Of a DNA stretch of 51,751 nt, positions 1-21,322 are shown one piece after another. The position numbers and the translations under genes are program-made. Under the pieces are notes generated by a model, which was given only the letters and a program-made list of their open reading frames with translations, was not told the DNA's origin and did not search any database. Position 1 is the stretch's first letter, and each line of letters opens with the position of its first letter. Location: positions 2,196-53,946 of the forward strand of contig CAZVZC010000009.1 of the NCBI GenBank assembly GCA_964631415.1. The letters run 5' to 3'. This DNA is from an uncultured archaeon. GTDB lineage: Archaea > Asgardarchaeota > Thorarchaeia > Thorarchaeales > Thorarchaeaceae.

Positions 1-1565
1 ACGAGATAGACCCTGCCACCGTAATCTGCGAGGTGGTATTCACCGATTCTTCCGGCTATCTGGAGGTATCTTGACCTGCTGTTCACATAGCCCATTGAGT
101 TGTCGTACAGGATAACGATGCAATCGAACGGGAAGCTTATACCTGCAGTAATGCCTGTAGTCGAAACAACTGTCTTGATATCACCACTCTTTACAGCTTT
201 CTCAAGTCTTCCAAGTAGGGCAGAGTCCAGTCCGGCGTGATGGAAAGCAACACCGGACTGCAGAGTCTTTCGTAGGCGTCGGGCTGCAGGCATGTCATCG
301 CTTGGGCTGACAATCTGGTCCACGAGTGCGCTGTTCACAGACTGCAAGTGTCTACTTGCGACGTACTCCGCCACTGACTCGGTTCGAGATCTCGAACCTG
401 TGACTATGAGTAGTGCCTTGTTCTGGTTGCTGCCGATATGTTCTAGCACCGCGCCAATCACGTCATCGCCGGATGCCTGATAGTCCGCAGTGCCATCACT
501 ACTGCGTATGTCGACTGTGTCAATGTTTCTGGTCACGATGAACTCGTCCGGGATGAGGGTGACACTGGGTCTGAAGACTCTCGCCTTCAACCACCTTGTC
601 ACGTTCTGAGTCCCACCAAACCGCGATGAGAGCGTGATCACCTTTGCCTGCCGCTTGAGGAGTGTAATAAGACAGTCTAGCCTAGCACTCCTGTCACTTC
701 CCAACTCTTGGGAGTCGAGTTCGGTGGCTTCATCCACTATTACTAACCCGATGTTCTGAATCCATGATTTCCTCTGCAGGATTGCCAAGAATGCAGACTC
801 GTATACTGATACAACCAAGTCGGCTCTTTCAAGGTCTTCGTCTATTCCTCTGACTTGCCCATCATGTCTGACAACTGAAAGCCCCAGATCATGCAACAGG
901 ACTCCGTATTCATCGATTATCTGGCGGTTCAAGGACATGTATGGGCTGATGTAAAGGCATTTCACCTTTCTTTCAACACTAGTCAGAATGCCGATGATTC
1001 CCAGGAAGGTCTTCCCTGACCCCGGCGGCATCTGGATTATGAGGTTGTCATCAATCTTATCGATTTCCCTGAGGAACTTCTCCTGTGCCGGAAGCAGACG
1101 AACGAAGTTCTTGTGTTTCAGCAGCAGCTTTGCGGCTCGCTGCACGTCGGTGTCAGTGGAGGCTGGTCCTCTCATACCCCTGACTGCTTCAAGTGCGATT
1201 CGCCCCTCATGGGTCGCAGTGAACCTTCGCTGTTTCTTTCCCTTGCCGCCTGCCGGCTGGACGAATCCCGCCTGAATCAGCTTATTCATACTCTCATAGA
1301 GAGTACCTCCAGAAGCGAACCGTCTTCGTAGTTTCTCGTATTTCGCGTAATCATTCGTTCTCTCATCATCAGGACCATGCAATGGCTTAGAAACACCCAT
1401 CAGAGTCAGTATTCCTTCGACTATGGCATCCCATCCTAGAGCGGGAACCACATCTCCTGTCTTGGGACACAGAACCTCAAGTATCTCCAATGAGTAACGG
1501 TTGCCGAGGGTCTTCAGGTTCTCTCTCAGCCCAGCCGTCTCTGAGTCCTCCCTCGGTTCCGACAT
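1..1565 (-). CDS. Ski2/Hel308-like SF2 helicase with N-terminal winged-helix (PadR/ArsR-like) domain; 3' end runs off the window
   Basis: Not in the ORF track; translated by hand from ATG at 1565 (MSEPREDSETAGLRENLKTLGNRYSLEILEVL...GGTLYESMNKLIQAGFV...). Shows Q-motif LLPAQE, Walker A MPPGSGKT, motif II IVDEAT, GVAFHHAGL and YLQIAGRIG. The frame stays open to the window edge. Confidence 0.85.
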   Translation of the reverse strand, partial: MSEPREDSETAGLRENLKTLGNRYSLEILEVLCPKTGDVVPALGWDAIVEGILTLMGVSKPLHGPDDERTNDYAKYEKLRRRFASGGTLYESMNKLIQAGFVQPAGGKGKKQRRFTATHEGRIALEAVRGMRGPASTDTDVQRAAKLLLKHKNFVRLLPAQEKFLREIDKIDDNLIIQMPPGSGKTFLGIIGILTSVERKVKCLYISPYMSLNRQIIDEYGVLLHDLGLSVVRHDGQVRGIDEDLERADLVVSVYESAFLAILQRKSWIQNIGLVIVDEATELDSQELGSDRSARLDCLITLLKRQAKVITLSSRFGGTQNVTRWLKARVFRPSVTLIPDEFIVTRNIDTVDIRSSDGTADYQASGDDVIGAVLEHIGSNQNKALLIVTGSRSRTESVAEYVASRHLQSVNSALVDQIVSPSDDMPAARRLRKTLQSGVAFHHAGLDSALLGRLEKAVKSGDIKTVVSTTGITAGISFPFDCIVILYDNSMGYVNSRSRYLQIAGRIGEYHLADYGGRVYL

Positions 1566-1680
1566 CGCAATCATTTCTCACTCTGTGAGGCATCGTAAAA
1601 AGATTGCTTTCATTCTGCAGATAATACTCGGCCTTTTGTTCAATGCCCTGATTGCTATCCACGAACCTGAGGTGAAATGG

Positions 1681-16808: not shown

Positions 16809-17681
16809 CTACTTCAAGGCCTTTCTGAGTAGCTCGGCGACCTGACTGGGTCTCTCTGCAACAGCGACACCTGCATCCTTCAACGCTTTGATTTTCGCTT
16901 CTGCCGTACCCGTACTTCCACTGATGATGGCTCCTGCATGACCCATCCTCTTCCCGGGAGGTGCTGTCCTACCTGCAATGAAAGCGACCACTGGCAGGTC
17001 AAACCCCTTTGAAACGTATGAAGCAGCACGTTCCTCTGCGTTTCCGCCAATCTCCCCCACTAGGACAACTGCCTTTGTTGCCCTGTCGTTCTTGAACAGC
17101 TTTAGACCTTCCGTGGGCGTCAGCCCGACACATGGGTCTCCACCCAACCCAATCGCTGTCGAGATTCCAATCCCGGCTAGTGTCATTCCGGCGGCGATCT
17201 CATAGGTCAGTGTTCCACTGCGTGACATGAGCCCCACATTGCCGGGAGAGAACACATGACCGGGCATTATCCCGACCTTCTGCTTCGCGCTTGGAGTTAT
17301 TATTCCTGGCGTATTGGGGCCAATGATGGTGATACCCTTCTGGGCTGCTACGTGGATGACCCTGATCTCATCCTTCACAGGGAGGTGCTCTGTAATCACT
17401 ACCACTGGGTTGAGGCCTTCTGATATGGCCTCAAGGGCAGCGTCAGCTGCGTAGGCAGCAGGAATGAAGATTATCGACGCTGTTGCATCATGTTCTCGCT
17501 TTGCCTCTCTCACCGTGTCGTACACGGGTACGCCGTTCACATCAGTGCCACTCTTGCCAGGCGACGTACCAGCTACAATCTTCGTCCCATACTTCAGCAT
17601 TGAAGCAGTATGAAATGTCCCCTGCGAACCAGTGATGCCCTGCACTATCACTCTCGTCTTCTTATCTACTAGGACCACCAT
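16809..17681 (-). CDS. sucD: Succinyl-CoA synthetase alpha subunit
   Basis: VQGITG; IIGPNTPG; SRSGTLTYE; GEIGG; PPGKRMGHAGAI. Confidence 0.95.
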   Translation of the reverse strand: MVVLVDKKTRVIVQGITGSQGTFHTASMLKYGTKIVAGTSPGKSGTDVNGVPVYDTVREAKREHDATASIIFIPAAYAADAALEAISEGLNPVVVITEHLPVKDEIRVIHVAAQKGITIIGPNTPGIITPSAKQKVGIMPGHVFSPGNVGLMSRSGTLTYEIAAGMTLAGIGISTAIGLGGDPCVGLTPTEGLKLFKNDRATKAVVLVGEIGGNAEERAASYVSKGFDLPVVAFIAGRTAPPGKRMGHAGAIISGSTGTAEAKIKALKDAGVAVAERPSQVAELLRKALK

Positions 17682-18827
17682 CTACGTCGCCTCCTTCGCC
17701 AACTGAACCACACGCTCAGCAGCCTCCTCCATGGTTTTCAAGAATGGAATGCCGGCCTTGTTAAGTATCTCCTGCCCCTGCTCCTCATTGGTGCCTACCA
17801 TCCTTATCACTGTGGGAACTCTCAGTCCTTTTTCTTCGCGCGCACCGACTATGCCTTTGGCGACTTCATCGCATCTTGTTATGCCGCCCATGATATTAAC
17901 GAGGACTGCCTTCACCTTGGGATACATTAGCGCAATCTCAATGCCCTTCTTGACTCGTTCAGCATCGGCTCCGCCTCCTAGATCTAGGAACGTGCTGGCC
18001 TTTCCTCCATGCAGGGCTACTGCGTCTAAGGTGGCCATGGTCAGTCCTGCACCATTGCATATACATGCTATGTCACCATCGAGTTCAACATAGGCCATGT
18101 CGTGTTCGGCCGCGAGTTTCTCTCTTGCGTTCTGCTCGATGGGTTCCCTTCTCAGTCCGTCTGTCAGCTTCTTGTGACGGTACAATGCGCTGTCGTCCAC
18201 GTTGAGTCGTGCGTCCGCAGCCAACAGTCGTCCATCCTTTGTGAGAACGAGCGGGTTAATCTCGGTCAGTTCAGCATCGTAAGAGTCTGCAACATTCCAC
18301 AGACTGAGAATCATACTCGTCAGGGTGCTCATCGTTTTGCCCTTGAAGCCCATGGCAACGGCCATCTCACGTGCCTCGTATGTCTGAAACCCTAACAGCG
18401 GGTCAACATACATCTTGATTATCTTCTCAGGGCTCTGAACGGCGAGCTCTTCGATGGACATCCCGCCAGCCGAGCTCCCGATGATCACATACTTGCGTTC
18501 GTTCCGGTCCACAGTGACTCCAAGGTAGATTTCCTGTTGGATGTCCAACTTCTCTTCCACGAGTACTGCCTCAACAGGCATGTCATTGATCCTCATAGCC
18601 AGTATCTCTCTAGCCGCGTTCTCAGCCTCGTCTGGAGTGTTGGCGAACTTTATTCCTCCTGCTTTGCCTCTCTTTCCTGCCAACACTTGTGCTTTGACCG
18701 CGACTGGCTTGCCAATCTCTCTCGCTCGTGTCTTCGCTTCTTCGGGAGTCTTAGCCACGTTTCCCGGCGGTGTTGTTAGGTTGAAGGCACGGAAAATTTC
18801 CTTTGCTTCCATTTCGAGGAGCTTCAT
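17682..18827 (-). CDS. sucC: Succinyl-CoA synthetase beta subunit
   Basis: Start MKLLEMEAK at 18827; KAQVLAGKRGKAGGI; EINPL; NGAGLTMATLD; NIMGGITRCD. Confidence 0.95.
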   Translation of the reverse strand: MKLLEMEAKEIFRAFNLTTPPGNVAKTPEEAKTRAREIGKPVAVKAQVLAGKRGKAGGIKFANTPDEAENAAREILAMRINDMPVEAVLVEEKLDIQQEIYLGVTVDRNERKYVIIGSSAGGMSIEELAVQSPEKIIKMYVDPLLGFQTYEAREMAVAMGFKGKTMSTLTSMILSLWNVADSYDAELTEINPLVLTKDGRLLAADARLNVDDSALYRHKKLTDGLRREPIEQNAREKLAAEHDMAYVELDGDIACICNGAGLTMATLDAVALHGGKASTFLDLGGGADAERVKKGIEIALMYPKVKAVLVNIMGGITRCDEVAKGIVGAREEKGLRVPTVIRMVGTNEEQGQEILNKAGIPFLKTMEEAAERVVQLAKEAT

Positions 18828-18904
18828 AGGTTCCACCACGCACTGAGAAGGTAGAACAGCCACCTTCCCGGACACCACCGGTCCAATGTCTTGGAGTAAA
18901 AAAC

Positions 18905-21124
18905 TTAGCTGCTCTCCGTGAGCATAGCTGTCAGATCACCCTGCAGTCGGTAGATCTCCTTGTACAGTCCGTCCCGTGCGTCTTCTGCCATGAGCCTCAG
19001 AAGAATGGAGTTCACATAGTGCAGTTCCTCGAGAATGTTCTCAACTATGCCTGGCATGTCCTTCTCGCATTGTATGGCCTGCTCGATACTCTCCGCCGGA
19101 ACTGAGTCAATGACCCGTTTGACCAAGTCCTCGGGCAGGTCTGTTCTGGCCACGGTCACACCTACTAGAAGGTCTCTCAGTCTGCCACTCCCTCTTGCGA
19201 CTGCCTTCATCACCTTCTTGGCGTCTCGAACAGGTACTCCTAGGACTGCCACACTGGCCCCCAAGTCGGTGCATCTGACGGCCTTTCCGTCGCGGATAAT
19301 CAGGTCATCATGCTCCATGTCATCAAGCACCCTGAGACCGCGTAGAGCCTGCCCTATTACGGATGCTGCATAAGGTCTGGTTTCATCACTCTTGAGGGCG
19401 AATGAACAGAACTTGACTAGATGCTTGCAGAGCCTGTGGTTCCTTATCCCTTGGTACTTCCAAGACTCACAGGAACAGGACACTCCCTCGGCTGGCCTGA
19501 GGGTCACATAGTGCCATAGCTCTCTTGTGCCACTATGAATCAGACCCTCAATCTTGAAGGGCGTGACAGACACAAACTTCACTCTTGAGTCTGATATCTC
19601 GTCAGCGCGCTTGACCGTAGACTTAGTGGTCCGAAGGGAGATAATATCACTGACAGCCGAATCGTCAAGGGATACCATTGATTCCTGAGTAATTCCCTTA
19701 GCCCTGTTTGTTGCAGCCCAATATGTGCGGCTGATGATCGCAAACGGGTCATCTGTCACTGCAGTCCTTCCACACAACTGGCTGATGACCAAGTCCTGTA
19801 TGTTCTCGGGGTCGTCCATGCAGCTGTCCACTTCCCCGAGCCTCGGACTGATGTTTCCATCTCTGTCTTTGGTGAAGAACTTGTCCAAGACCCGCGCACG
19901 TTCTGACTCCTTGTCAACAACCACAATCGCGAAAGCCTCGTTGTCAACCCCTGCCCTGCCTGCTGACTGCAGGACGTCATTGAGCTGCCACTCAGAAAGC
20001 ATGGTGAGGTCCTCGGTCCCTAAGACGTCTTTGTCGACATCTTTCATGAACACCCCGACCAGAAAAACCACGGTTGCTTTGATACCACTGGCGATTGCGA
20101 ATCTCGTCGGCATGACAACTACAGGCAGAAGCCCCTCCTCCCATGCAGACGATACTTGCCTCCTCTGGGCTCTGGAAACTCCCTCGTGCAGAAAGGCGAC
20201 ACCTCTTAGGATTGCGCCTGCAAGGCTAGAGGTCACTTCGCATTTTGAATACTTGTCCCTCACCTGGTTTGAGAGAATCCTGAGGTCGTCTTGGTGAGAA
20301 GGTGTCAACCTGAGGTCAAGGGGTACGGACTTGTCCACTCCAGACGTTCCTGTCAACTGAGCTGTCAATTTCTCGCAAGAGGCTATGTCAGGACATAGTA
20401 TCATTATCTGACCGCGGCGGTAATGAACGAACTCAGTTAGGTCTGCCAGCGACTCACGCACGCTACTGAATGCCTTCACGCTGAATATTCGTTTCACCTC
20501 GGGCTTCGTGTCCTCGACAATGTCAGCATGTAGCCAGAGACTCAGGTCCTTGAGATCTGCGACAGGCGGGCATGTGGCTATGTACTGTATCGCTTGACCG
20601 TGGCCCATCAGATTCACAAGCGTCGTTTCGAGTGTCGCACCAATATCTGGCTGCCCAATCAAGTCGAGACGCTCGACGATGACACATTGGAGACTCTCTA
20701 GCGACTCAGGATGAACTCTCAGTGCTATGTCCAATGAACCATAGGTCCCAACCACGACACGCCCGCTCTTCCACTCCTGACTAATGGCAGTACGCCTACG
20801 TATGGCGTCGGCCCCCTCGATTCCAAGGCGCCTGCACTTCTGTATCAAAGAGGAATATCTCTTCTCAGCTTGGTGTGCATTTGGACAGAGAACCAATGCT
20901 CTCGCCTTGTAGTCAGTTAACAGCCTGTTCAGAGCTGCGATCTCTGCTATCTGGTATGCCTCATCATAATCGTACGTGACAAGCAGCTGGCTTGCACCCC
21001 TGAGTACACCCTTTTCCAGTGCAGCAGTCTGAAATCCTGACAGTTTGACAAGACCCTGTTTCCTGAGAAGCTCCAGCAGACGCGGCGAAGTTTGCTCAAG
21101 CTCGAGCTCTCTCAATGTGCTCAA
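18905..21124 (-). CDS. Inactivated Hel308/Ski2-like helicase with SWIM zinc finger
   Basis: Hel308-like scaffold (GLVKLSGFQ, LVLCP, GVAFLHEG, SAGRAG) with Walker A and B replaced; SWIM motif CSC-x13-CKH. Start uncertain (TTG 21124 or ATG 21175). Confidence 0.75.
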   Translation of the reverse strand: MSTLRELELEQTSPRLLELLRKQGLVKLSGFQTAALEKGVLRGASQLLVTYDYDEAYQIAEIAALNRLLTDYKARALVLCPNAHQAEKRYSSLIQKCRRLGIEGADAIRRRTAISQEWKSGRVVVGTYGSLDIALRVHPESLESLQCVIVERLDLIGQPDIGATLETTLVNLMGHGQAIQYIATCPPVADLKDLSLWLHADIVEDTKPEVKRIFSVKAFSSVRESLADLTEFVHYRRGQIMILCPDIASCEKLTAQLTGTSGVDKSVPLDLRLTPSHQDDLRILSNQVRDKYSKCEVTSSLAGAILRGVAFLHEGVSRAQRRQVSSAWEEGLLPVVVMPTRFAIASGIKATVVFLVGVFMKDVDKDVLGTEDLTMLSEWQLNDVLQSAGRAGVDNEAFAIVVVDKESERARVLDKFFTKDRDGNISPRLGEVDSCMDDPENIQDLVISQLCGRTAVTDDPFAIISRTYWAATNRAKGITQESMVSLDDSAVSDIISLRTTKSTVKRADEISDSRVKFVSVTPFKIEGLIHSGTRELWHYVTLRPAEGVSCSCESWKYQGIRNHRLCKHLVKFCSFALKSDETRPYAASVIGQALRGLRVLDDMEHDDLIIRDGKAVRCTDLGASVAVLGVPVRDAKKVMKAVARGSGRLRDLLVGVTVARTDLPEDLVKRVIDSVPAESIEQAIQCEKDMPGIVENILEELHYVNSILLRLMAEDARDGLYKEIYRLQGDLTAMLTESS

Positions 21125-21322
21125 TTGGTCTAAGCCCCAAGCAGTCAGATGCGCAACGAGATGAGAAGTTATCATATCCTATTATCTTTTTGCAAAACAC
21201 TCAGAAACCTGCTTCAGCAGACTTCAAAGAGCACTGCAAGGTGTCGCGTGGTTGCGAAGCCTTTCCCAGAACAACAAACGTTTAATCCGGGTTCCATCCA
21301 TGGTGGCACGGCAGTGGTTGTT

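Follow-up and report, generated by a model that had tools for sequence, protein, structure and literature searches.

A conserved Hel308-like protein of Thorarchaeia with replaced ATPase motifs and an inherited SWIM zinc finger

The window examined here, a 51,751-nucleotide (nt) segment of a Thorarchaeia (Asgard) contig, encodes on its minus strand (18905-21124) a Hel308-like protein of 739 amino acids (aa), hereafter the dead protein, which is a long-branch derivative of an Asgard family of SWIM-bearing Hel308 paralogs and probably acts as a motor-dead, selection-maintained and non-enzymatic adaptor centred on its SWIM zinc finger. Specifically, the four-domain Hel308 ring (RecA1, RecA2, winged helix and ratchet) would be kept as a rigid scaffold in which the P-loop, the catalytic Glu, motif III and the first Arg of motif VI are swapped for equally conserved residues. 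Because these motifs are replaced and most conserved basic residues of the core motifs are lost, the dead protein most likely neither hydrolyses ATP nor translocates, and the SWIM module on the helicase-shaped body would dock a partner. The conservation pattern fits a scaffold body with the SWIM module as working surface; the loss of the ATP site and of most DNA-gripping residues, the strong selection and the prevalence of conservation in the SWIM module together make a passive binding adaptor the most likely function.

The replaced ATPase motifs, of which motif I was located by alignments to Hjm and to 40 active relatives, are the following:
20954-20977, minus strand: former Walker A (motif I), where TYDYDEAY replaces P-T-x-S-G-K-T
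20663-20674, minus strand: former motif II, where ERLD replaces DE(I/V)H, with an invariant Arg at the position of the catalytic Glu
20564-20572, minus strand: former motif III, CPP in place of SAT
19949-19969, minus strand: altered motif VI, QSAGRAG, in which the first Arg of GRAGR is lost and the second (R390) is invariant

Motif conservation was scored in 22 orthologs of 54-71% identity. In these sequences motif I reads T(Y/H)DY(D/E)EAY, with D52 and E55 invariant and Y53, A56 and Y57 conserved in at least 90%; the register, anchored on the downstream IAEIA, sets GKT against E-A-Y, so that Gly is replaced by Glu, the Walker Lys by Ala and Thr by Tyr. Moreover, R152 and D154 do not vary in motif II, which reads (D/E)RLDLIG, the same is true of both prolines in motif III (xPP), and motif VI reads SAGR(R/A)G; the intact motifs I (GKT), II (DExH) and VI (GRAGR) of superfamily 2 helicases are absent from the dead clade. 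An initial annotation of this DNA had reported the substitutions in motifs I, II, III and VI and had proposed an alignment of orthologs as a check: the substitutions are present and conserved, normal Walker motifs are found in none of the 22 orthologs, and only the Walker A register needed correction, to GKT = EAY. The dead motifs are a conserved state rather than a product of decay. A salt bridge between E55 and R152 was considered as a possible filler of the former ATP pocket.

Purifying selection acts along the whole protein. The ratio of nonsynonymous to synonymous substitution rates (dN/dS, Nei-Gojobori) is 0.069 for the genome pair G000-G029, which is unsaturated (dS 0.41), and every domain stays at or below 0.14 in this pair (RecA1 0.061, RecA2 0.10, the SWIM-bearing insert at residues 471-590 0.023, ratchet 0.14); a second pair, G005-G051, gives 0.13. 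Invariant columns make up 40% of the SWIM module and 16-18% of the RecA domains, but 7% of the ratchet, which is the least conserved part of the protein (dN/dS 0.14-0.23). A survey covered 61 genomes of the class from 17 genera: about 58 of the 59 genomes of one Thorarchaeia family (f1; 16 genera), including all 24 of its high-quality genomes, encode an ortholog (47-94% identity), and the one genome of a second family (f2) encodes a 22%-identical SWIM form alone, which has DEIQ and an intact Walker A. Among 1.84 billion representative proteins of a library, the full-length dead clade makes up one 50% cluster, and the next relatives are 21-26% identical; among the genomes searched, the dead clade is confined to one Thorarchaeia family. 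A decaying pseudogene or a functionless lineage-specific accident would account for the disappearance of all catalytic motifs and for the very long stem branch of the clade (1.65-1.7 substitutions per site), but it is scarcely credible for a frame that is open in 16 genera, with a dN/dS of 0.07-0.13 and with replacement residues that are themselves invariant. The long open reading frame (ORF) had already been taken to argue against a pseudogene, and the dN/dS of 0.07 and the near-universal presence in one Thorarchaeia family bear this out.

The conservation peaks in the zinc finger, whose features are:
19385-19594, minus strand: SWIM module, residues 511-580, four strands followed by helices (models, fold search and conservation)
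19421-19477, minus strand: SWIM zinc-ligand core, C550-x-C552...C566-x-H568, predicted ligands in the 739-aa numbering (alignment)

None of the four ligands C550, C552, C566 and H568 varies among 52 aligned sequences, distant relatives included, and the twelve most conserved 15-residue windows of the protein all fall in residues 546-572; the core at 19421-19477, proposed earlier as an insertion into the winged helix before TDLG, is thus confirmed, as is the conservation of its SWIM residues. The insert lies within the winged-helix region before CTDLG, is basic (charge +3.2) and measures about 120 aa versus about 12 in canonical Hel308. A Pfam search of the dead protein finds no helicase domain and yields a sub-threshold SWIM match alone (PF04434, 16.6 bits versus a cut-off of 19.6); 17 of the 22 orthologs also match below the threshold, and the relatives P0150 (27.7 bits) and P0133 (21.5 bits) match above it. 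The AlphaFold2 (AF2) model of the isolated module reaches a predicted local distance difference test (pLDDT) score of 84.3 and, when compared without a Foldseek prefilter to 48,161 chains, it finds ZSWIM8 first (Z 7.5 over 95 residues, root-mean-square deviation (rmsd) 3.3) and Shu2 of the Shu1:Shu2 complex second (Z 4.2), with all others at or below 3.8. Since a Z of 7.5 is moderate, the assignment rests on both top rows being SWIM proteins; on this ground the SWIM fold, strands followed by a helix bearing the last two ligands, is present in the predicted structure. A Foldseek search of the PDB with the isolated module gives no match at E <= 0.001 (top row ZSWIM8, E 0.31), and an ESM Atlas search with the module gives no usable match.

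The body that carries this module is that of Hel308. NCBIfam Hel308 models match residues 29-434 (E 3e-27) with 81-95 bits versus cut-offs of 887-1216, so that the curated cut-off of the Hel308/Hjm family (NF040935 and related equivalogs) is not reached, and Hjm (PDB 2zj2) is matched at E 5e-19, or at E 1e-26 with an ortholog profile. The full-length AF2 model, built on a 52-row alignment, is confident (pLDDT 85.9, predicted template modelling score 0.86); its top Foldseek matches are Hjm, Hel308, the Pol theta helicase domain and Brr2, with E values down to 5e-27. Structural alignment with VIA-align to 2zj5, 9b15 and 2p6r gives Z 29.7-31.0 and rmsd 3.2-3.6 over 559-574 residues; the matches to Hjm, Hel308 and the Pol theta helicase domain range over Z 29-31, with about 570 residues aligned. 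The collinearity with Hel308 noticed in the initial annotation therefore holds in sequence as well as in fold (Z about 30). Model residues 2-738 cover Hjm 1-640/655 of 720, which indicates that domains 1-4 are retained and that domain 5 is absent; accordingly, the ring of RecA1, RecA2, winged helix and ratchet is present in the model, and no Pfam HHH match to domain 5 is found, unlike in the relative P0150, whose Pfam layout is DEAD, Helicase_C, SWIM, archaeal helicase domain 4 and HHH. About 165 model residues, mainly those of the insert, are unaligned to Hjm. Besides the SWIM module, the parts of the protein are:
20510-21124, minus strand: RecA1-like domain with replaced ATP site, residues 1-205 (AF2 model versus domain 1 of Hjm/Hel308; dN/dS 0.061)
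19850-20509, minus strand: RecA2-like domain, acidified, residues 206-425 (model; net charge; dN/dS 0.10)
19715-19849, minus strand: N-terminal part of the winged helix, residues 426-470 (model and alignment to Hel308 domain 3)
19595-19714, minus strand: variable helical linker that opens the insert, residues 471-510 (pLDDT, secondary structure)
19235-19384, minus strand: post-SWIM helix and C-terminal part of the winged helix with the CTDLG wing, residues 581-630 (model)
18908-19234, minus strand: ratchet-like helical domain 4, residues 631-739, with domain 5 missing (model versus Hjm)

In the linker, model confidence is low at residues 474-485 and 2% of the columns are invariant; in the CTDLG wing region, T619 and G622 are conserved family-wide. 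The dead protein thus shares with Hel308/Hjm (2zj2/2zj5/2zj8, 2va8, 2p6r; NF040935) domains 1-4 in the same order and with the same fold, a homologous sequence along residues 30-430 and the Phe-Gln of the Q-motif, but it lacks Walker A, the catalytic Glu, SAT, the first Arg of motif VI and domain 5, and it carries the SWIM-bearing winged-helix insert of about 120 aa. The genome of the window encodes a separate, canonical and SWIM-less Hel308 with intact motifs, which adjoins MCM.

Together with the ATP site, most of the residues by which an active helicase would grip DNA are gone. At each of 19 alignment columns, K/R is present in 70% or more of the 40 active or canonical rows; 4 of these columns stay basic in the dead clade and 15 are lost, including the conserved Arg/Lys of motifs Ia, Ib, IV, V and VI, and the mean net charge of RecA2 is -7.5 in the dead clade versus +1.7 to +6.7 in the other groups. 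Partly degenerate forms of other Asgard lineages, described below, retain most of the 19 columns. The segments that had been taken as nucleic-acid-contacting are indeed recognisable as blocks, but most of the conserved basic residues within them are replaced, and the proposed nucleic-acid-binding scaffold becomes doubtful with 15 of the 19 basic columns lost and an acidic RecA2.

The SWIM insert is inherited from an Asgard-wide paralog family and was not invented in the dead protein. Nearly all of about 35 distant full-length relatives inspected carry CxC...CxH at the matching site, around residues 515-590, and the 11 active-type relatives aligned keep (S/A)P(S/T)xxGKT, DE(I/V)(H/Q), SAT and GRAGRP intact. 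The source names of the relatives are Loki-, Hod-, Odin-, Baldr-, Hermod-, Ran- and Asgardarchaeia, and members of the family are annotated as 'DEAD/DEAH box helicase' in metagenome-assembled genomes of Loki-, Hod-, Odin-, Baldr-, Hermod- and Thorarchaeia. The SWIM-bearing proteins form one clade versus canonical Hel308 (support of 99-100 in the Shimodaira-Hasegawa-like approximate likelihood ratio test, SH-aLRT), within which the dead clade, itself supported at 100, groups with forms from Hod, Ran and Odin (SH-aLRT 97-99). These forms keep Walker A, but their motif II reads DETY, DDAQ or EECD, their motif III reads SSN, SGK or SAN, and their motif VI has GK or GN where the second Arg would stand; no SWIM form other than the partly degenerate one was found in the Hod and Odin genomes that were searched. 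The paralogs therefore resemble the dead protein in the placement of SWIM at matching winged-helix columns, in their membership of one clade and in their similar length, and they differ in being 20-26% identical to the dead clade and in that the 11 active-type members keep GKT, DExH/Q, SAT and GRAGR and, in Thorarchaeia, sit in an operon with a Rad51-fold gene, which the dead gene does not. The idea that the SWIM insert was special to the dead protein is hence abandoned, since paralogs with intact ATPase motifs share it.

Constraining the dead clade to group with the active paralogs of Thorarchaeia costs 32.7 log-likelihood units (approximately unbiased (AU) test, p 0.033; LG+G4, 25 rows), a borderline result for a group defined once the tree was known and for a clade in which long-branch attraction is a risk. 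For these reasons a stepwise loss of motor motifs in the Hod/Ran/Odin sub-branch is favoured, not settled; the dead clade would then be an ortholog of the partly degenerate forms rather than a duplicate specific to Thorarchaeia. The partly degenerate Hodarchaeota form with DETY (loci L046-L048) follows, in the same orientation, PALP-family and ThiN genes, and no recombination-type operon is seen there. A further helicase, the ASH-Ski2-like L002 (G000:C23:16296-20087), has a cysteine-rich N-terminal region, SSTTSGKT and DEIQ, and its C-terminal CRCRDFPECDH resembles a short CxC...CxH finger. A role of the dead protein in a defence system was considered and dropped, as PADLOC gives no match for it; the active and partly degenerate relatives match the HamB and BrxH models via the generic helicase core only.

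Three other genes encode possible partners of the dead protein. In Thorarchaeia, the SWIM-Hel308 with intact ATPase motifs belongs to a conserved row of genes that share one orientation (L040 = G029:C50:42036-55295; also L038, L039, L041-L043 and L045). It is preceded by a protein of about 780 aa without a Pfam match; downstream lie two proteins of about 550 and 320 aa, with a weak PhoH-like P-loop protein between them, and then the Rad51-fold protein. A Hel308-like helicase with an N-terminal winged helix-turn-helix (wHTH), motif II DEAT and motif III LSS is encoded in the window itself (3-1574, minus strand, running past the window end) and occurs in 52 of the 59 f1 genomes, where it shares a contig with the dead helicase at a distance of about 17-20 kb; its relatives have open frames of about 900 aa, and the copy in the own genome has partly masked letters. 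Lastly, outside the window, a RadB-like Rad51-fold paralog of 254 aa (G000:C2:25926-26687, that is L054:1438-2199, plus strand; PF08423, E 7e-17) has its Walker A replaced by a conserved HLFYGxRxL and, judged by its sequence, is a second conserved pseudo-ATPase of recombination type; its orthologs (46-97% identity) occur in about 53 of the 59 f1 genomes, and it is not found in the f2 genome.

An adaptor centred on the SWIM module, the reading that we consider probable, has to be weighed against other functions of a motorless ring. The ring could be a static clamp or sensor that binds single-stranded DNA, RNA or a branched structure and marks it for other factors, with the SWIM module aiding nucleic-acid recognition instead of docking a protein. 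The retained four-domain ring, the basic charge of the SWIM insert and the invariant arginines newly acquired by RecA1 would suit such a clamp, as would the original proposal of the SWIM module, reportedly by Makarova and colleagues in 2002, as a DNA- or protein-binding module; however, with 15 of the 19 basic columns lost, RecA2 acidified by about 10 charges, the ratchet least constrained and domain 5 absent, we consider it rather unlikely. It is also conceivable, yet unlikely, that the dead protein is a trans-acting regulatory cassette that modulates an active Ski2-like helicase of the same cell, much as the inactive C-terminal cassette of Brr2 acts on the N-terminal one, with the canonical Hel308, the active SWIM-Hel308 or the wHTH-helicase as candidate partners. 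The C-terminal cassette of Brr2 matches the model at Z 29, the canonical Hel308 adjoining MCM is a possible partner in the genome, and the inactive cassette of Brr2 is a known regulator that keeps its nucleotide-binding pocket (PMC8220420). Here, conversely, the P-loop is erased, and two of the three candidate partners are not consistently present: the active SWIM-Hel308 occurs in 46 of the 59 f1 genomes (21 of the 24 high-quality ones) and is not found in the other 13 (3 high-quality), which keep the dead protein, among them the window's assembly (85% complete) and G017 (93%), and in the congener G028 it is split into two adjoining pieces, one of which contains a stop, and looks broken; the wHTH-helicase is not found at E 1e-60 in any of three congeners, nor in G005 and G007 (91-96% complete), all of which keep the dead protein. 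The presence of the dead protein where either helicase is not found indicates that it depends on neither, and the initial annotation's suggestion of a partnership with the helicase at 1-1565, the wHTH-helicase, does not hold as an obligate link.

The SWIM module might alternatively bind RadA-family paralogs, such as the RadB-like one, and control RadA filaments in the manner of a Shu/SWS1-like mediator. In eukaryotes, the SWIM module marks the partners of Rad51 paralogs; Shu2 is the second-best, although weak, fold match of the module (Z 4.2), the active SWIM-Hel308 shares an operon with a Rad51-fold gene, and the family f1 keeps a Rad51-fold paralog with a conserved non-P-loop sequence. Such a mediator is nevertheless quite unlikely, because the dead gene shows no chromosomal linkage to recombinase genes and lies in a conserved housekeeping block in 16 genera, because the RadB-like paralog is not found in six genomes that keep the dead helicase, including G002 (95% complete) and G043 (99%), and because the SWIM loop is strongly unlike that of the operon-borne active paralog. 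A complex prediction of the dead helicase with the RadB-like paralog and Zn scored 0.00 in two runs without controls, which speaks neither for nor against binding. The more specific idea that the two proteins make up an ATP-independent recombination mediator, derived from a working helicase-recombinase operon, is a long shot; if true, it would be an archaeal counterpart of the Shu/SWS1-SWSAP1 (SWIM plus Rad51 paralog) and HELQ-BCDX2 modules.

Some observations weigh against the SWIM-centred adaptor. The Phe-Gln of the Q-motif and the second Arg of motif VI remain invariant in the dead clade, and for this reason the protein may bind some adenine-type ligand without hydrolysing it; the loss of ATPase activity is itself deduced from the residues at the motifs. 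RecA1 has gained invariant arginines at 109, 110 and 122, and the lost surface for nucleic acids may have been replaced by a new one. Taken as a whole, the interpretation given in the initial annotation stands as far as a conserved, ATPase-motif-dead Hel308-like protein is concerned, but it is doubtful as regards the binding of nucleic acids, and it is not supported as regards a SWIM finger special to this protein and an obligate link to a paralog.

The limits of the gene and its surroundings are as follows:
18905-21124, minus strand: whole dead Hel308-like gene, 739 codons and a stop, with a TTG start at 21122-21124
18898-18903, minus strand: T6 run one base past the stop codon, a likely archaeal transcription stop judging from its composition

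The long minus-strand ORF spans 18905-21175 and extends beyond the conserved start. Orthologs have 733-739 aa and begin with MSTLRELE, the TTG at 21122-21124 is followed by codons for STLRELE, and the 17 codons upstream of it hold stop codons in many relatives; this sets the gene at 18905-21124 with 739 codons, and the TTG-started gene proposed earlier agrees with the starts and lengths of the orthologs. An A/T-rich AAAAGATAATA at 21180-21190 of the window (minus strand), 56-66 nt upstream of the TTG, is a candidate TATA box. A search of sequencing runs for 16809-21200 found no RNA run; the matching runs are DNA runs labelled as wetland and sediment metagenomes.

The gene lies between succinyl-CoA synthetase and PAC2/PUA/RsmB genes, and the order sucD-sucC-gene-(PRC barrel)-PAC2-PUA-RsmB-PALP is kept in 16 of 16 genera; since the whole 14-kb block is syntenic in these genera, adjacency carries no functional signal. 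The sucC ORF (window 17682-18878, minus strand) has a listed GTG start 26 nt after the helicase stop, but the true start seems to be an ATG 17 codons into the frame (MKLLEMEAKEIF); the intergenic gap would then measure about 77 nt and contain the T6 run. An operon with succinyl-CoA synthetase, suggested by ORFs 26 bp apart, was dropped on account of the T6 after the stop, the later sucC ATG and the block-wide synteny. The PRC-barrel neighbour was likewise dropped as a partner, being divergently oriented and detected in only 7 of the 16 genera.

Compared to known systems, the dead protein would resemble in function the inactive cassette of Brr2, and its insert resembles in topology the arch/KOW insert of Mtr4/Ski2. 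The C-terminal cassette of Brr2 and the N-terminal cassette of ASCC3 are non-unwinding, Ski2-like platforms for binding or regulation, and their fold is close to that of the model (Z about 29), but they are fused to an active cassette, have Sec63-type domains and no SWIM; the dead protein is stand-alone, with 739 aa and an erased P-loop, and the likeness is one of fold only. The arch of Mtr4/Ski2 serves as an adaptor-docking platform. It likewise places an accessory module in the winged-helix domain of a Ski2-like helicase, an insertion described in PMC10946056, but it consists of a stalk and a KOW barrel rather than a zinc finger, its host helicase is active, and no homology is implied. Shu2/SWS1 (ZSWIM7) and ZSWIM8 share the CxC...CxH zinc module and are the best fold matches of the isolated module, but these SWIM proteins are not helicase-borne, and a counterpart of their partners (Rad51 paralogs; a CUL3 ligase with Argonaute) is not shown for the dead protein. 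The comparisons with Shu/SWS1 and Brr2 are analogies only.

In the literature searched, neither the SWIM-Hel308 family nor its dead branch was found to be described. A survey of archaeal Ski2-like helicases that includes 27 Thorarchaeota genomes distinguishes Hel308, ASH-Ski2 and Brr2-like groups, and a term search of it retrieves no passage on a SWIM-bearing or inactive form (PMC10946056); the passages retrieved in the same way from a 2026 review of Hel308/HELQ mention neither form (PMC13623763). A literature search on SWIM zinc finger, helicase and archaea gave nothing relevant. The dead protein descends from a helicase family that already bore the SWIM finger. To our knowledge, helicase-fold pseudo-enzymes are known mainly from eukaryotes, where Brr2 and ASCC3, for instance, carry inactive cassettes. 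With its active, partly degenerate and fully dead members, the SWIM-Hel308 family offers a natural experiment on the change from motor to scaffold, and the SWIM module is singled out as the surface from which a search for partners may start.

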